Of a stretch of DNA of 64,000 nt, positions 52,928 to 59,511 are shown in pieces; positions within the stretch are counted from its first letter, which is position 1, and every line of letters begins with the position of its first letter. This DNA is from Escherichia phage vB_EcoM_PHB13, in sequence record MK573636; one strand, given 5' to 3'. The position numbers and the translations under genes are program-made. The notes under the pieces were generated by a model. That model saw only the letters and a list, made by a program, of their open reading frames with translations. It was not told the DNA's origin and ran no database searches.

Positions 52928-53169
52928 AAAGAAAATTAATTAAACGAAATAAGGAATTTTTGAATAACTGCATTAAGGTTGCTAATGGTTGGCCTTTGTT
53001 CCTCTTCCTTTATGATTGGTATTCTAAACAATCGGTAGAGGAAACACGACACTATAAGAAGATCAGAAAAGAATCATATACAAAACAAGGCCGCATTAAC
53101 GGACTTTACTTAATGTGGCACGGCAAAGAACCTTCTAAAATCTGTGTTGGATTAAAGGGGCGTATATGA
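52924..53169 (+). CDS. hypothetical basic protein (81 aa)
   Basis: GTG start overlapping the previous stop; its stop overlaps the next start (ATGA). Confidence 0.45.
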   Translation: MKRKLIKRNKEFLNNCIKVANGWPLFLFLYDWYSKQSVEETRHYKKIRKESYTKQGRINGLYLMWHGKEPSKICVGLKGRI

Positions 53170-53882
53170 AACAAAAATTAATATTCTGCAACTTTGACGG
53201 ATCGGGGATAATGGGGCTAGAATGGGCTAAAGCAGGTCATAAGGTGATCTGCTTTAATGCAGATGATGCCGACCACGGCACATACAAAAAGTATAATACC
53301 CGATTTGAACATCCAAACATTACATATGTAAACACATGGATTGATTTGGATTGGCTGGAAAGAGCAATGGACCTTGAATGGGGAAAACCAGATATTATCT
53401 TTGCATTCCCACCGTGCACCAATTTAGCTGTTAGTGGCGCTGCACACTTTGAACGAAAGAAACGAGAACAAGGACCATTAATTCAAGTTCATGATGTAAG
53501 GGCAGCTAAAATAACCGCTTATTTGGGCGAATGGTTAGAAGTTCCCTACATGATAGAGAATCCTGTAAGCGTTATCTCTAGCATGTGGCGTAAGCCTGAT
53601 TACATGTTCCACCCGTGGGAATATGGCGGTTATTTGCCGGAATATGATATACATCCTACGTTTCCTGAGTATATTGCCTCCCGTGATATGTACCCGAAAA
53701 AGACTTGCTTATGGACGGGACAAGGTTTTATAATGCCAGAAAAGAAACCTATACCGATTAATAAAGGGTACAGTAAACAGCATTCTAAGCTAGGCGGGAA
53801 AGGAACCAGAACAAAGACTATCAGGTCACTTACCCCGCGAGGATTCGCAAAGGCAGTATTTGAAGCCAATAAGGATCTATGA
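53166..53882 (+). CDS. cytosine-C5 methyltransferase-like catalytic core protein (238 aa)
   Basis: Motif I-like FCNFDGSGIMG, motif IV-like IIFAFPPCTNLAVSGA (Pro-Cys) and motif VI-like YMIENPVSV in DNA C5-MTase order; too short for a target-recognition domain. Confidence 0.5.
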   Translation: MKQKLIFCNFDGSGIMGLEWAKAGHKVICFNADDADHGTYKKYNTRFEHPNITYVNTWIDLDWLERAMDLEWGKPDIIFAFPPCTNLAVSGAAHFERKKREQGPLIQVHDVRAAKITAYLGEWLEVPYMIENPVSVISSMWRKPDYMFHPWEYGGYLPEYDIHPTFPEYIASRDMYPKKTCLWTGQGFIMPEKKPIPINKGYSKQHSKLGGKGTRTKTIRSLTPRGFAKAVFEANKDL

Positions 53883-54211
53883 TGGGATTGTTTAAGTATT
53901 CGCTAACGTCAAATTACGATAAACAAGGTCATTGCATCAGTTGCCCTGATTGTCGTAGCCATAACATCGAAAGCAAGATCACCGATCATATTGATGGACT
54001 TTGGTCGCCAGCAAGCGAGATAGAATACTATTGCGCTGATTGTGGAATTGTAGTAGCATATTGGGCATACGGATCATATGATCCTTACTTCCAGATGGGA
54101 GAGCGTTCAATCCCTGCTCTTATCTGGAGAATTAAGAACAATATCCGCCATTCATGGGATGAGTTCTTAAAAGATATTGATTTACGTGATGATCCATTCA
54201 GGAGACTATAA
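53879..54211 (+). CDS. zinc-ribbon protein (110 aa)
   Basis: CISCPDC ... CADCG: four-Cys zinc ribbon; start overlaps the previous stop (ATGA). Confidence 0.5.
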   Translation: MMGLFKYSLTSNYDKQGHCISCPDCRSHNIESKITDHIDGLWSPASEIEYYCADCGIVVAYWAYGSYDPYFQMGERSIPALIWRIKNNIRHSWDEFLKDIDLRDDPFRRL

Positions 54212-54212
54212 C

Positions 54213-54731
54213 ATGAACCGTTTGACGCCTAAACGCCGTTACTATACCAATACTAAAAACTTTGTCATCTCTGTTTATGAGGCGTGGTTAGAAGATGGCT
54301 ATATCAACATGAACCCAGATTACCAGCGTCCTTTGGTATGGGACACCGAAAACAAACGTATGTTTATCGAAAACCTGATTAATGATTTTCCGGTTGGTGC
54401 TATCGCAATGGCTAAGATTGATGATGGCTCTCGCTATGAGATCGAAATCGTGGACGGTAAACAGCGTTTAAACGCAATATTCTCCTTTATGAAAGATGAG
54501 TTTAGCATTGCTGGTAATGATGATTCTATGTTGTATTACAGTGATTTTACGCCAGCAGAAAAGCGACGTTTTCGCAATCTCGGACTACCCGCGATCATGA
54601 TGGAAGAGAGCACACGAGAAGATCGATTAGAATATTTCTACAAAACAAACTTTTTCGGTGTGCCTCAATCAGAAGATCATCGCCAGCATGTGATTGCATT
54701 ATTGCAAGATGAGCAATTAAAAAATAACTAA
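54213..54731 (+). CDS. DUF262 / ParB-like nuclease-domain protein (172 aa)
   Basis: NPDYQRPLVW...FIENLINDFPVGAI...EIVDGKQRLNAI matches the DUF262 hallmarks (YQR...W, DGQQR-like); ATG 54213 after GGAGA. Confidence 0.55.
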   Translation: MNRLTPKRRYYTNTKNFVISVYEAWLEDGYINMNPDYQRPLVWDTENKRMFIENLINDFPVGAIAMAKIDDGSRYEIEIVDGKQRLNAIFSFMKDEFSIAGNDDSMLYYSDFTPAEKRRFRNLGLPAIMMEESTREDRLEYFYKTNFFGVPQSEDHRQHVIALLQDEQLKNN

Positions 54732-54804: not shown

Positions 54805-55017
54805 ATGGCTAACATCGAAATCATCATTACCGACGTAACTTATGACCGCATTAACGAAATCGGTACTGCTTTGCTAGAAGATGGAACAACTCGCACCATC
54901 AACTACGCAGAATACGTTGAAATGCGCGGTTGTATTAAACGAGTAGGAAAATATATCCTGATTGAAAAAGACTATTCAGGATACACATTAGAGCAATTGC
55001 TCGATGGTGCATTATAA
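54805..55017 (+). CDS. hypothetical protein (70 aa)
   Basis: MANIEIIITDVTYDRINEIG... after TAAGGAGTATCAA-ATG. Confidence 0.55.
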   Translation: MANIEIIITDVTYDRINEIGTALLEDGTTRTINYAEYVEMRGCIKRVGKYILIEKDYSGYTLEQLLDGAL

Positions 55018-55023
55018 TAAATT

Positions 55024-55044
55024 GGGGCGTTAAGCCCCCTTTTC
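55024..55044 (+). terminator. rho-independent terminator
   Basis: Hairpin GGGGC-GTTAA-GCCCC followed by CTTTT; same loop as the 51246 terminator. Confidence 0.55.
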
Positions 55045-55084
55045 ATAAATATAGGTTTATAGGTTATCAACTAGAGGATATAAA

Positions 55085-57136
55085 ATGTTTAACTTAGAAA
55101 TCGACGATCTAATGATTGAATCTTTCGAGAAATGGCTGTTGACGGAAGAGGAAGAAAACTTTGGCAGTATTGCTCCGGTACAGTGCTTAAAGCCTAAGCA
55201 GAATCCTAAACAGCTTTTTGCAGTACAGACACGCGATAAAGATGTGATTGTCCGTCTTTGTAACTTCACCAACAAAACACCTAAAATCATTCGTATGGGT
55301 GACAAGACCGCACATGTTGTACTGTGCGAAATGAACAAAAGCGGTCGTATTGTACAGCTTAAAAATGGTCTAGGCGATAACCCGATTGCAGTTATGGCAA
55401 GTGCTTTTGATGTGGTTATGGAAACAGCCCGTAAAGCGCAATTAGACGCTGTTATGTTCCGTTTTAACGTATCCCGCATGAAAGGTAAGACCGAACTGGT
55501 TAAGCGCGTTATAGAGCGTTTGGTGCGTCGTACACCGAAGTTTGAAGTATTCCAGCAGGAAGTAATGACCAGCAAAAAGATCGCTTTAGTTGTTGTCAAG
55601 CGTCGAGGTATGGCGATTGATAAGATTAAAGGGATTAAACTTGATGAATCCTTGTTCACTAAAGTAGAAAGTGATTTAGGTGATCGCTGGGTATCTAAAG
55701 CTACTGGCGAATCTCTGACTAAAGATGAAGCATATGCGGCTAGTCTTGTGTCAGAAGAAGAACGAAACGCGGAAGCAGAACAACGCGTAGCGGCTAAATC
55801 TCGTTTGACTAAAGAAGAAATGCTGAAAACTCAAGCGACCTATAACAGCGACTATGTGAATCATCCAGAAAAAATTAATCTTAAACCGGAAGAAGATATC
55901 ACCGAAGCAGAACCTAAGAAACAGTTTAATACTCTGATTGACCGTCAAGCCTTAGAACGTTCAACCGCCCGTTCTCTGAATGACTGGACAAGTGATATTA
56001 TCACTCGCTATGGTTTCATGCGTACTATTTTTGAAAGCGAAGCCGATGCAAAATACGCAGTAAGCGAACTGGTAAAAGTTCAGGACCAATATGATCCGTT
56101 GTCTGCGGAAGTTATCGCAGCATCAATCAAACGCTTAAAAGAAATCATGAGCGAGGAAGTATTCGAAAACAAGATCACTGCGTTGGCAATGGATCGAGTA
56201 GACCAGTCTATGCCAGCAGATGTAAAAGCTGAAATGCTGCGTAGTCATATCACACAGATTAAAACCGATGCCCTTCGTAATGTTGCCTCCGGTATGTTTG
56301 AAGCAATTGCAAGTAACATGGGTGAAATGATGGCAGATATTGATCTTGACCTACCAGGCGCGGAAGGTTTTGTGTTGAGCGAATATGCGGATGCAGCATA
56401 CATCAATATGAACAACTTCCTAACCGATCGTAAGCTGGATGAGTTCGAAGGGATCGCTGACCCAGAAGAATTGGTCAAGATGTGCGACGCACTGGATAAT
56501 GCCTTCGCTAACTATGGCGTTAAACTTGATCCGGGTACTATTCTGTATCGTGGTATGGACTTCCGGTCTCAAATGTGGGAAACTGCACGTAAGCAAAAAG
56601 CGTTTTACTTTAAAAACTATGTGAGCACTTCCCTTGCACCTAACATTTTTGGCGGCTGGAATGCAAACGTGGCTAGTGCCGTTGCTGGTGTTGATTCTAT
56701 GGCTGGCTCTCGCGGTGAAGGTGGCGCGAATGTTGCTTTCTCCATTGCTGGCGCGGAAAACATCCCTGTATTGCCAGTAGGTAACAAAGCATTTGCTTAC
56801 AAAGAATGCGAGATTTTACTTCCTCGCGGTGTTGTGTTATCCTTTGATACGGTAACTCGTGCTACGGCATCGACGGATTCACAAGAAACATATTACATTG
56901 AGGCACATATTATGAACAAAAGTGAACTGGCAGCATTACAAGAATCTGGCGAAATGATCGCGGATGGTGATGCATTCATCCGTGAAGGTGTTGTTAAACC
57001 TGCTTCTGACCTGTCTTTCTCCAGATTCATTACAGAAGCTAAAACCGAACGTAAGAAAGCAGATAAGGCAACTCTACGTCAGCTTATCGCTGATCTGGTG
57101 TCTGTAGACGCAATGCCAGATAAATTTAAAATGTAA
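55085..57136 (+). CDS. alt: Alt ADP-ribosyltransferase (683 aa)
   Basis: Length equals T4 Alt (682 aa); catalytic region LYRG...YVSTSL...ECEILLPRG (R / STS / E-x-E) and C-terminus ...PDKFKM match T4 Alt (...PLKFVM). Confidence 0.85.
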   Translation: MFNLEIDDLMIESFEKWLLTEEEENFGSIAPVQCLKPKQNPKQLFAVQTRDKDVIVRLCNFTNKTPKIIRMGDKTAHVVLCEMNKSGRIVQLKNGLGDNPIAVMASAFDVVMETARKAQLDAVMFRFNVSRMKGKTELVKRVIERLVRRTPKFEVFQQEVMTSKKIALVVVKRRGMAIDKIKGIKLDESLFTKVESDLGDRWVSKATGESLTKDEAYAASLVSEEERNAEAEQRVAAKSRLTKEEMLKTQATYNSDYVNHPEKINLKPEEDITEAEPKKQFNTLIDRQALERSTARSLNDWTSDIITRYGFMRTIFESEADAKYAVSELVKVQDQYDPLSAEVIAASIKRLKEIMSEEVFENKITALAMDRVDQSMPADVKAEMLRSHITQIKTDALRNVASGMFEAIASNMGEMMADIDLDLPGAEGFVLSEYADAAYINMNNFLTDRKLDEFEGIADPEELVKMCDALDNAFANYGVKLDPGTILYRGMDFRSQMWETARKQKAFYFKNYVSTSLAPNIFGGWNANVASAVAGVDSMAGSRGEGGANVAFSIAGAENIPVLPVGNKAFAYKECEILLPRGVVLSFDTVTRATASTDSQETYYIEAHIMNKSELAALQESGEMIADGDAFIREGVVKPASDLSFSRFITEAKTERKKADKATLRQLIADLVSVDAMPDKFKM

Positions 57137-57153
57137 TTTTTAAGAAATAATGG

Positions 57154-57194
57154 TTGACTCAAACGGGGACTAGTTTTATACTAGCCCCGTTTTC
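57154..57194 (+). promoter_or_regulatory. promoter with stem-loop that may also terminate alt transcripts
   Basis: TTGACT 57154-57159; stem GGGGACTAG...CTAGCCCC around TATACT (57177-57182), followed by GTTTTCTGTT. Confidence 0.5.
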
Positions 57195-57214
57195 TGTTAT
57201 ATGGGAGGTTTAAA

Positions 57215-58039
57215 ATGTTCAAGAAATTACAGGATTTTCGTCTTTCAGAAGAATCACGCGAATCAATGATGGAACGTATGGATAATTACATCGAAACATA
57301 TGACATTGAGGGGATTAATGGTTACATGATCACTGAGATGATCAGCGATCAGATTAACTTTGATGATTATGTGAAGGTTATCCGCTTCCTTGAGCGTGAG
57401 ACACAAGATTATGGATTTGTCAAGAAAATCATTAATGTGATGTATGAAGTACACTCCGAAGACTTTGGAGATAATGTATTCAAACATTACAAACATAACA
57501 ACATAACCCCAGCAGAATATAATGCAATCTGTGATTATGTGTCTGAACAATACGAATGGGTAAATGGTGCTCTCTTAGGGGAAGAAGACATGACCGATGA
57601 GATATCAGAGATTGTTGATTTGATGGATTGCGCCATGGATAAAACCGAAAAGTTAAACGGTACTCTTTATCGCGGTCAACATCTTGACATTCAGACAATA
57701 GAGCGTATTATTGAAGATAAGGAATTTACCTTTAAAAACTTTGTGTCAACCAGCATGACACCGATCATCTTTGGAGGCTGGCTATCAAACAGCACTAGCC
57801 TTTATTGTGAGAATCGATATGAATCCATGACCGGAAAGATGCAACATTCTTGTAATGTATCGTGGGTAATTGACGTAAAAGATCATAAAGGTTTTGTTGT
57901 TGGGTCAATTGCATGGAATCCTTGCGAATGTGAAGTAATTTTACCGCGCGGGACTTGCGTCAAGGTAAACGACGTAGTAGAATCTTTCGGTGATGAGAAT
58001 CGTAGACAATTTACAATTTTCGGTGAGGTGACTAAATGA
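57215..58039 (+). CDS. second, shorter ADP-ribosyltransferase (Alt paralogue, 274 aa)
   Basis: LYRGQ...FTFKNFVSTSMTPIIFGGW...CECEVILPRG parallels the Alt catalytic region (FYFKNYVSTSLAPNIFGGW...ECEILLPRG). Confidence 0.7.
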   Translation: MFKKLQDFRLSEESRESMMERMDNYIETYDIEGINGYMITEMISDQINFDDYVKVIRFLERETQDYGFVKKIINVMYEVHSEDFGDNVFKHYKHNNITPAEYNAICDYVSEQYEWVNGALLGEEDMTDEISEIVDLMDCAMDKTEKLNGTLYRGQHLDIQTIERIIEDKEFTFKNFVSTSMTPIIFGGWLSNSTSLYCENRYESMTGKMQHSCNVSWVIDVKDHKGFVVGSIAWNPCECEVILPRGTCVKVNDVVESFGDENRRQFTIFGEVTK

Positions 58040-58548
58040 AAATGATTAAACTGATTGGTCTTGCGGCTTTAGTGGCTATGCTTAATGGGTGCGCTGTGCA
58101 TGATCTGGCACTTGCATCTAAGAATACACACGAGTTTGTACGGTCATGTGAACGATGGCAGAAAGAGTCACGTTTTCCATTTAATAGCGTTGAAGATTGC
58201 GTGATTGACTACCTTGAAAAGAAAGACGCCTCATTACAGCGTTTAGGTCGTCAACCGGAATCAGCAGAACAGATCGCAAAGATTAAGGCAGATAAAGAAG
58301 CAGAGAAGAAACGCATTTACGAATATTATTATGGTCATGAAAATTCAATTGAAGAAATGAATCGCAAAGCAATGGAAGATGCCGACCGTCGTAGAAAATT
58401 TGGAGTATGTGTAATCGGGACGGAAGCAGCATATCAAGATGATCTTTCGGCTGCATATGAGGAAGGGGATTATGAAAAACTTCAATTGCTACAATCAAAA
58501 CAGTATCGCTATAAACTACGCAAACAATGTGATGATTTAATCAAATAA
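58036..58548 (+). CDS. putative lipoprotein (170 aa)
   Basis: Signal peptide MKMIKLIGLAALVAMLNGC with lipobox LNGC; charged mature part. Confidence 0.55.
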   Translation: MKMIKLIGLAALVAMLNGCAVHDLALASKNTHEFVRSCERWQKESRFPFNSVEDCVIDYLEKKDASLQRLGRQPESAEQIAKIKADKEAEKKRIYEYYYGHENSIEEMNRKAMEDADRRRKFGVCVIGTEAAYQDDLSAAYEEGDYEKLQLLQSKQYRYKLRKQCDDLIK

Positions 58549-58575
58549 AAGGCGGGGATTATCCCCGCCTTTCGC
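58548..58575. terminator. bidirectional terminator between convergent genes
   Basis: Hairpin GGCGGGGA-TTAT-CCCCGCC with T-runs on both strands (TTTCGCTT on +, TTTTATTTGA on -). Confidence 0.6.
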
Positions 58576-58578
58576 TTA

Positions 58579-59511
58579 TCAGAACCAGTTAGTGACAGTA
58601 TTCACCACACGCCCACCAACGCCATTTAGACGCGATAAAGCATTACCAGCAGCAGATAACCCACTATCAAGTAAATTATTGCCGAACGTGTTTGTTATTG
58701 CGTTTATTGCCTTATCCTCAATCCATTCTCGCGCGGCTTGCTCTCCTACAGCACCAGTTTGCATAGAACGATATGCGAAAGTAACATCGAATGTTGTGAT
58801 TTCGTTGTTGTTTTCATAGTTTAATTCCGGTGCACTCACACCAACAGGAACACAACCATTAAACATCATGATCGTGTGAGGAACTCCCATTCGGTTATGT
58901 AAGTTGACCTGAATATCTGCTTCAACGTCAACAGGAAGCGCACGAAGCCCTGTAACGGGGTCTTCTACTGAGTTAACCCAATCCTGCATTGCTCGATAGT
59001 TTGATGCGCTAGAGTCCATTCTAAAGCTCAATACAAGCGGATCGAAATCACGTCCGGTAATTCGAATGTTTGGCGCATTGTGGTTACGGTCCATTTCATA
59101 ATTCAATCTGTTTTCTGGAACCTTAACAGCATACACCAGAAGACCGCTTGTCTTATATGCCATATTGAACCAGTCAAGCGCATATGTACCAACATCAAAT
59201 TGCCCCAGAAGAGATTGAACTACGCGGGATGACATTGCACCTAAAAGATACTTTTTGACACCAGATGAATCAACAGCACGCCTAACACCCTGTACAGCAA
59301 GATTTGTTAATGCGTCAGTATAATCACCACGAGTAATCCCGAAATAGTCATTTAATGCATTTGGTATAATATCATATACCGCACCGCCCATACTTTCTAG
59401 GATCGCTTGTGTCTTATTACTTGGAGTGGTGGCAAATGCCACGCTGAATAAGTTAGATCGCTGAAAGTCAAGGTTAGCGGCTTGTTCGTTAAAGTCATTT
59501 AAATCAAACAT
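58579..59511 (-). CDS. 54: baseplate tail-tube initiator gp54
   Basis: 310-aa - strand ORF in the gp54 position next to alt; size close to T4 gp54 (320 aa). Confidence 0.7.
   Translation of the reverse strand: MFDLNDFNEQAANLDFQRSNLFSVAFATTPSNKTQAILESMGGAVYDIIPNALNDYFGITRGDYTDALTNLAVQGVRRAVDSSGVKKYLLGAMSSRVVQSLLGQFDVGTYALDWFNMAYKTSGLLVYAVKVPENRLNYEMDRNHNAPNIRITGRDFDPLVLSFRMDSSASNYRAMQDWVNSVEDPVTGLRALPVDVEADIQVNLHNRMGVPHTIMMFNGCVPVGVSAPELNYENNNEITTFDVTFAYRSMQTGAVGEQAAREWIEDKAINAITNTFGNNLLDSGLSAAGNALSRLNGVGGRVVNTVTNWF

Follow-up and report, generated by a model that had tools for sequence, protein, structure and literature searches.

An Alt-related short ADP-ribosyltransferase gene beside alt in an RB49-like phage, and the predicted early promoter between them

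ADP-ribosylation of host proteins is a central tool by which T4-type phages take over the cell, and interest in it has revived with the demonstration that ModB links RNA chains to host proteins (RNAylation). Here we describe two adjacent ADP-ribosyltransferase (ART) genes, alt and a much shorter relative, in a 64,000-nucleotide stretch of the genome of Escherichia phage vB_EcoM_PHB13 (sequence record MK573636), hereafter called the window. Positions 55000-58600 of the window are 95-99% identical to 58 phage records, the closest being that of phage E26 at 98.6%, and the window is from a Krischvirus, an RB49-like T4-type coliphage (among the matching records, taxonomy was checked for RB49, E26 and GEC-3S, and others were assigned where their names say so). 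Genes are ordered as at the T4 alt locus: small early open reading frames (ORFs), alt, two ORFs, and then the converging late genes 54, 48 and 29. A first-pass annotation of the window, made from its sequence alone, had proposed that two ART genes lie side by side at 55085-58039; both ORFs are found there, and their similarity is far above chance. The two genes and their catalytic codons are as follows.

55085-57136, + strand: alt, encoding a full-length Alt-like ART of 683 amino acids (ORF list, Pfam, PHROG, translation)
56549-56551, 56624-56632 and 56804-56812, + strand: catalytic codons of alt for R489, S514-T-S516 and E574-C-E576, respectively (translation)
57215-58039, + strand: short gene, encoding an Alt-clade ART of 274 amino acids, orthologue of RB49p183 (ORF list, Pfam, PHROG, translation, alignments, model)
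57671-57673, 57746-57754 and 57926-57934, + strand: catalytic codons of the short gene for R153, S178-T-S180 and E238-C-E240, respectively (translation)

The longer protein is a typical Alt. Its translation has LYRGM at 487, STS at 514-516 and ECEILLPRG at 574, and it matches both Pfam PF03496 (36.1 bits, E 5.4e-09; gathering cut-off 23.4) and PHROG 802, the Alt-like family (E 3e-179). It is identical to RB49 Alt at 675 of 683 residues and shares 27% identity with T4 Alt over 695 columns (E 1.5e-60). Expression of alt in T4 is late, and ModA and ModB are made early (PMC9697503). About 40 copies of T4 Alt are packaged and the N-terminus is trimmed (PMC9697503, PMC9958956), and the enzyme modifies the alpha subunit of RNA polymerase (PMC10468400).

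The 274-residue protein contains the same catalytic core. Each of the motifs that had been claimed for it is present on translation (LYRGQ at 151-155, STS at 178-180 and CECEVILPRG at 237-246), and its match to PF03496 (ADPrib_exo_Tox; R-S-E, C3/VIP2-type) reaches 62.8 bits with an E-value of 3.5e-17, at the same cut-off of 23.4. Over its full length it matches PHROG 15144, annotated as ADP-ribosyltransferase (E 1e-197), and it is also matched by PHROG 802 (E 3e-46); NCBIfam holds no model for either ART. Pairwise, the short protein is 37% identical to the neighboring Alt over 109 residues (E 1e-16) and 32% identical to T4 Alt over 181 residues (E 3e-24). Alignment revealed no loss of the catalytic Arg or Glu, as R153, S178-T179-S180, E238 and E240 are invariant in all eight aligned homologs. 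The E-x-E motif also lines up across the five proteins compared with MAFFT, including T4 Alt, ModA and ModB; this alignment is reliable only for E-x-E, since the Arg and Ser motifs of ModA and ModB were not aligned with those of the Alts, and the Mod motifs were examined in an alignment of their own. In R-S-E transferases, E-x-E rather than Q-x-E points to arginine as the acceptor, and from this motif we infer that the short protein would be arginine-specific.

A structural model agrees with this assignment. The AlphaFold model of the short protein, built from an eight-sequence alignment, has a pLDDT of 80.5 and a pTM of 0.75, and a Foldseek search with it matched Vis, C3bot2, Certhrax, CDTa and iota Ia (E 2e-10 to 1e-8, probability 1.0). 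The modeled fold thus matches the ART fold of the R-S-E toxins. Among viral models, the first match was the identical protein of phage PHB13 (BFVD A0A482MMH4), followed by Alt and 'split Alt' proteins. Searching the PDB by sequence gave only weak matches (Tre1, E 0.027; Vis, E 0.16).

The two proteins differ in what surrounds the core. A profile alignment (hhalign) of six members of the short family with eight full-length Alts equated residues 47-273 of the short protein with Alt residues 376-610 (probability 99.9%, E 6e-37), and the PHROG 802 profile equated residues 8-268 with Alt-profile positions 330-602. The short protein therefore corresponds to the Alt catalytic module together with the helices that precede it. 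It is without the first 330-375 residues of Alt and without the conserved 73-residue C-terminal tail, ending in MPxKF, that is present in full-length and split Alts alike; the complete Alt architecture, of about 650-710 amino acids with the N-terminal region (PF26846) and the MPxKF tail, is not found in the 274-residue protein. The first-pass annotation had described its N-terminal region as different from that of Alt. That wording is imprecise, since most of the region is homologous to the pre-catalytic helices of Alt; what differs is that the first 330-375 and the last 73 residues of Alt are missing.

Diverged orthologues of the short gene were collected from Logan and ENA contigs. They encode proteins of 272-288 amino acids at 83, 62, 48, 45 and 44% identity to that of the window, and the order Alt, short ART, an ORF of 155-170 amino acids, gene 54 is kept in every contig long enough to show the neighbors. 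Between STS and E-x-E, the short family has an invariant, family-specific stretch, NSTSLYCENRY. We constructed a neighbor-joining tree of the catalytic region, in which the short family is a monophyletic group (bootstrap 100), placed outside the clade of all sampled full-length Alts (bootstrap 84). The short protein shares 29% identity with its own neighboring Alt and 29-36% with the Alts of other genera; being no nearer to the former than to the latter, it points to an old split. A search of 1.84 billion cluster representatives returned only three members of the short family (about 271-282 amino acids), followed by one multi-ART protein of 3254 amino acids and then by Alts of 600-710 amino acids; with the short-family alignment as query, IMG/VR yielded just two loci, which are near-identical. 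As a side observation, nine separate stretches of the metagenomic protein P0010 (3254 amino acids) match the short-ART profile, and several other proteins of 1300-4300 amino acids have three to eight such stretches each.

Comparison of the short gene with that of RB49 revealed 12 synonymous changes and one non-synonymous change, a ratio of non-synonymous to synonymous rates (dN/dS) of 0.019; with the 83%-identical relative the ratio is 0.10. On these sequence data, the short gene is functional and selectively maintained, not decaying.

The locus at which it lies has produced other copies of alt. Full-length alt genes number two in RB27, three in AnYang, two in Ursula and one in Apostate. In the Tequatrovirus-like contig L014 (7183-9248) the second alt copy is split into ORFs of 273 and 415 amino acids, and in contig L013 (2366-4386) an alt copy is split into 356 and 316 amino acids. 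The N-terminus of T4 alt.-1 (L005, 1066-1451) is near-identical to the second full-length alt of RB27 (L007, 3747-5804) and to the 273-residue ORF of L014, so that T4 alt.-1/alt.-2 are the decayed N-terminus of the second alt copy, which is intact in RB27. Together, these tandem, split and decayed copies mark the locus as a duplication hotspot, and the Krischvirus short form is one stable outcome at this duplication-prone locus. The same tendency to duplicate and decay, seen in T4 alt.-1/alt.-2 and in the split copies of L014 and L013, could suggest that the short gene is itself a functionless remnant of a tandem alt duplication. We consider this very improbable, given an intact frame of constant length (272-288 amino acids) down to 44% identity, a dN/dS of 0.02-0.10, the invariance of the catalytic residues and of NSTSLYCENRY, and a conserved promoter and Shine-Dalgarno sequence of its own. 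The selection and conservation data led us to reject a pseudogene.

The signals that flank the two genes differ in kind. The element between them was compared with the PeSL (promoter-early stem-loop) class of RB49 and phi1 (Arbiol et al. 2010, PMC2839356; Comeau et al. 2014, PMC4122927), in which a promoter and a terminator stem-loop are combined. The predicted signals are listed below.

55024-55038, + strand: terminator hairpin GGGGC-GTTAA-GCCCC followed by a T run, ending the upstream early unit (terminator scan, -10.7 kcal/mol)
55044-55051, + strand: T4-type late-promoter core CATAAATA, 34 nucleotides 5' of the alt start codon (sequence comparison)
57154-57159 and 57177-57182, + strand: promoter half of the PeSL, -35 TTGACT and -10 TATACT with a 17-nucleotide spacer (promoter scan)
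57161-57198, + strand: terminator half of the PeSL, stem-loop AAACGGGG(A)CTAGT-TTTAT-ACTAGCCCCGTTT (hairpin 57161-57192), then TTTTCTGTT (RNA folding)
7 nucleotides 5' of the short-gene ATG, + strand: Shine-Dalgarno sequence GGGAGG (sequence)

The terminator before alt was predicted by TransTerm in RB49 ('alt<--RB49ORF185c', PMC1524935 supplement) and is annotated in GEC-3S, and a hairpin occupies the same place before alt in T4, RB27, AnYang and L008, a 47%-identical relative. Directly after the terminator, an ATAAATA core follows in the window and RB49, in L008 (AATAAATA), in T4 and RB27 (TATAAATA), and in AnYang (CATAAATA). The heptamer is strongly depleted in the window, with five copies against 24 +/- 5.6 expected, and all five (21072, 26187 and 26385 on the - strand; 44168 and 55045 on the + strand) lie 20-45 nucleotides 5' of an ORF start on the same strand. 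By this depletion and placement, ATAAATA behaves as a real late-promoter signal. The portion of the supplement text of PMC1524935 available to us contains no published prediction of a late promoter for RB49 alt. Taken together, these signals suggest that alt is expressed late and is insulated on both sides, as in T4.

By contrast, a motif search of the gap between alt and the short gene (57137-57214) found no ATAAATA late-promoter core. What lies there fits a PeSL, that is, a putative sigma-70-type early promoter within a GGGG...CCCC terminator hairpin. The promoter is preceded by the AT-rich TAATTTTTAAGAAATAATG, CCC stands just before the expected start at about 57188-57190, and GGGAGG and the ATG follow downstream; the -10 box sits in the loop and 3' arm of the hairpin. 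The hairpin RNA folds at -18.9 kcal/mol (z -6.1), and 0 of 200 shuffled sequences fold as well. In five lineages whose flanking proteins are 44-62% identical to those of the window, the hexamers and their spacing are invariant and the hairpin is conserved, with 93.8% of the stem cells paired as compared with 34-51% in slid controls. Compensatory changes on both sides affect two of the 13 stem pairs (CTAG/CTAG, TCAG/CTGA, ACAG/CTGT), although with five sequences the covariation statistics are modest (10 of 500 shuffles score at least as high). The same promoter site is annotated in the GEC-3S record, and an early promoter had been predicted in RB49 at 112338-112388 on the minus strand, with a hidden Markov model score of 9.3 (Nolan et al. 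2006, PMC1524935).

The element shares all sequence features of the RB49 and phi1 PeSLs: an upstream stop codon in an AT-rich stretch, a near-consensus -35/N17/-10, a GGGG-loop-CCCC stem over the -10 box, and a downstream Shine-Dalgarno sequence and start codon. Compared with the TTGACA/TATAAT of a typical PeSL, the hexamers here are weaker. Strong promoter and efficient terminator activity have been demonstrated by experiment only for PeSL193/192, 206/205 and 211/210 (PMC2839356), and the portions of Arbiol et al. (2010) and Comeau et al. (2014) available to us make no mention of the element between alt and the short gene.

Elements of this kind recur in the window. We located at least 13 PeSL-like elements on its + strand (12169, 12447, 35689, 38521, 38747, 47566, 47959, 49103, 49337, 52362, 52607, 54739 and 57154), a series of near-consensus sigma-70 promoters interlaced with GGGG...CCCC or GGGAG...CTCCC stem-loops. 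Two layouts occur: the stem lies between -35 and -10 in one and overlaps the -10 box in the other. A separate observation concerns the metagenomic contig L012, to which identity is about 85-99% across alt (mostly above 90%), falls to about 70-75% just 3' of the PeSL (57154-57600 compared), and rises again in the catalytic half of the short gene. Such a drop resembles a recombination break at the PeSL and is what the PeSL shuffling model would predict.

The short gene is followed by a further gene and by a terminator.

58036-58548, + strand: predicted lipoprotein of 170 amino acids, MKMIKLIGLAALVAMLNG/C (lipobox LNG/C, the slash marking cleavage) (ORF list, lipobox)
58547-58573, both strands: bidirectional terminator of 12 pairs, 7 of them GC, between the ART-lipoprotein unit and the converging late gene 54 (terminator scan)

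The start codon of the lipoprotein gene overlaps the stop codon of the short ART gene (ATGA), and no promoter or terminator was found between the two, which implies a single transcription unit. The lipoprotein matches PHROG 16112. A lipoprotein gene follows the ART gene in RB49, GEC-3S, L008, L010 and L012, and an ORF of similar length is found there in L020 and L025. The terminator beyond it is annotated on both strands in GEC-3S and was predicted by TransTerm in RB49 ('54-><-RB49ORF182c'). Two side observations concern this gene. Over exactly 58050-58490, identity to RB49 is down from about 98% to 33-52%, rising again at the terminator, with the signal peptide kept; and the gene exists as two allelic types within the Krischviruses, the proteins of the window and RB49 alleles being 36% identical. 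At the other end of the locus, the early-region ORFs 5' of alt lie at 53166-53882 and 54177-54731 on the + strand; one is a DNA methyltransferase in the RB49 annotation, and the other encodes 184 amino acids.

These features suggest a division of labor. On balance, we think it probable that the short gene encodes an intact, arginine-specific mono-ADP-ribosyltransferase of the Alt clade that is made early, is not packaged and acts in the manner of a Mod protein, beside a late and packaged Alt. With a terminator on each side, alt would be read from a T4-type late promoter, as expected of a product that is incorporated into the head and then injected. Both the short gene and the overlapping lipoprotein gene would be read from the PeSL, which lies inside the very hairpin predicted to terminate alt transcripts. 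Transcripts starting at about 57188-57190 would begin within the 3' arm of that hairpin and would be without its 5' arm; such transcripts could not form the hairpin and should read through. The phage would thus bring in one Alt enzyme together with its DNA, and a second one, derived from Alt, would be synthesized in the cell soon after infection, the latter taking the role that ModA and ModB play in T4. Both the early-type signals and the missing Alt N-terminal region and tail point to an enzyme made early in the cell and not injected. The guarded suggestion of the first-pass annotation that the second enzyme might differ in packaging behavior is consistent with the predicted late-promoter core before alt and the early PeSL before the short gene. 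Its other suggestion, a target different from RNA polymerase alpha, finds neither support nor contradiction in our data.

Several points weigh against this proposal. The published score of 9.3 at the PeSL site is low beside the 30-39 of strong RB49 early promoters, and TTGACT and TATACT are each one base off consensus. A literature search found no expression or virion-proteome data for any Krischvirus, and for this reason early timing, absence from the capsid and Mod-like action are inferences from sequence signals. Internal proteins of T4 reach the head by way of only about 10 N-terminal residues, and the N-terminus of the short protein, MFKKLQDFRLSE, holds L-x-E, the kind of motif that is cut by the prohead protease. 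According to a review, how proteins localize to the T4 core remains unknown (PMC9958956), so that the missing Alt N-terminal region is only circumstantial evidence against packaging. Finally, nothing in our analysis identifies the substrate of the short enzyme.

Some of the same points could be taken to mean that the short enzyme is a second injected head protein, packaged by a short N-terminal capsid-targeting peptide like those of T4 IPI-III and delivered beside Alt. Besides the L-x-E in MFKKLQDFRLSE, several orthologues have, close to their N-terminus, an [LI]-x-E that resembles it loosely; the alt locus adjoins baseplate genes, a context that others have read as a sign of packaging for Alt-family ARTs (PMC5512222, PMC9503650); and the sibling Alts of RB27 (two) and AnYang (three) are full length and presumably all packaged. 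However, the motif is not conserved across the family, and a regular-expression scan for capsid-targeting-like N-termini was too permissive to be informative. The gene follows a conserved early-type PeSL and has no late-promoter core 5' of it, although ATAAATA is specific and depleted in the genome, and the protein is without the N-terminal region and tail that are kept by every full-length Alt and, between its two halves, by each split Alt. We therefore regard injection as unlikely and retain the proposal that the short enzyme is made early and left out of the virion.

A more specific form of that proposal is that the short enzyme replaces a missing ModA and completes the early ADP-ribosylation of RNA polymerase alpha at Arg265. 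RB49 has one mod gene, whose product is nearer to T4 ModB (33%, E 8e-10) than to ModA (23%, E 2e-5), is ModB-like and retains R-S-ExE intact; with one mod gene as compared with two in T4, each phage carries three intact ARTs, and the short enzyme takes the place of ModA in that count. It derives from Alt, which in T4 modifies RNA polymerase alpha (PMC10468400), and its promoter signals are of the early type, like those of the mod genes. Yet the single RB49 Mod could itself cover the ModA role, and the short family has invariant loops of its own between STS and E-x-E, where Alts differ, which would suit a new target and RNA polymerase equally well. For these reasons we find replacement of ModA rather doubtful.

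The loops lend themselves to another, speculative account, which we offer tentatively. An Alt catalytic module freed from its head-delivery parts, placed behind a mobile early promoter-terminator cassette and followed by a fast-changing lipoprotein gene, may form an exchangeable early unit, and family-specific loops such as NSTSLYCENRY might give it a host target other than that of the injected Alt, for example a defence or translation factor and not RNA polymerase alpha. Whatever the target, the locus is a natural comparison within one family and within one phage, with one copy apparently for injection and the other apparently for early synthesis, and it should be well suited to separating the parts of Alt that serve delivery from those concerned with catalysis and the choice of target.

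Neither gene is new: the pair has stood in the RB49 annotation and in the literature since 2003-2006, and PHROG 15144 covers the short protein. The present work contributes the layout of the transcription signals, the evidence that the short gene is under selection, and the limits of the family. RB49p183 (RB49ORF183c, NP_891754.1) is the same gene, identical at 273 of 274 residues and with the same neighbors, alt upstream and ORF182 and gene 54 downstream; nothing material differs except the allele of the downstream lipoprotein gene. RefSeq names it 'ADP-ribosyltransferase' with the note 'similar to C-terminal part of T4 Alt protein', and RB49ORF183c was listed as a paralogous duplication of alt by Nolan et al. 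(2006, PMC1524935).

T4 Alt (gpAlt, 682 amino acids, PHROG 802) belongs to the same R-S-ExE clade as the short protein, with which it shares P-x-IFG-x-W after STS, E-x-E-[VI]-[IL]-LPRG, and a locus by gene 54. Its packaging and N-terminal processing are documented (PMC9958956). The short protein differs in having neither the 330-375 N-terminal residues nor the C-terminal tail, in a predicted early PeSL promoter with no late core, and in branching outside the sampled full-length Alts. T4 ModA and ModB (200 and 207 amino acids) would by analogy work alike, as small stand-alone R-S-ExE enzymes that are made early from sigma-70-type promoters and are not packaged. However, the mod genes adjoin srd, a different location, and the short protein is about 70 residues longer and has Alt-specific insertions. 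BLASTP with the short protein gave E > 1 against T4 ModA and RB49 Mod and no alignment to T4 ModB; membership in the Mod family was rejected, as no pairwise sequence similarity was detectable.

The tandem, split and decayed alts of other phages (RB27 alt2, AnYang alt1-3, Ursula alt1-2, the 'split RNA polymerase ADP-ribosylase' of Acinetobacter phage ZZ1, and T4 alt.-1/alt.-2) are likewise products of duplication at the same locus, and the C-terminal halves of the split alts (316-463 amino acids) carry the catalytic part alone, like the short protein. These other copies differ from it in being full length, or split halves that keep a partner N-terminal ORF and the C-terminal tail, or non-catalytic remnants, whereas the Krischvirus short form is a separate, old and stably maintained lineage with a promoter of its own.

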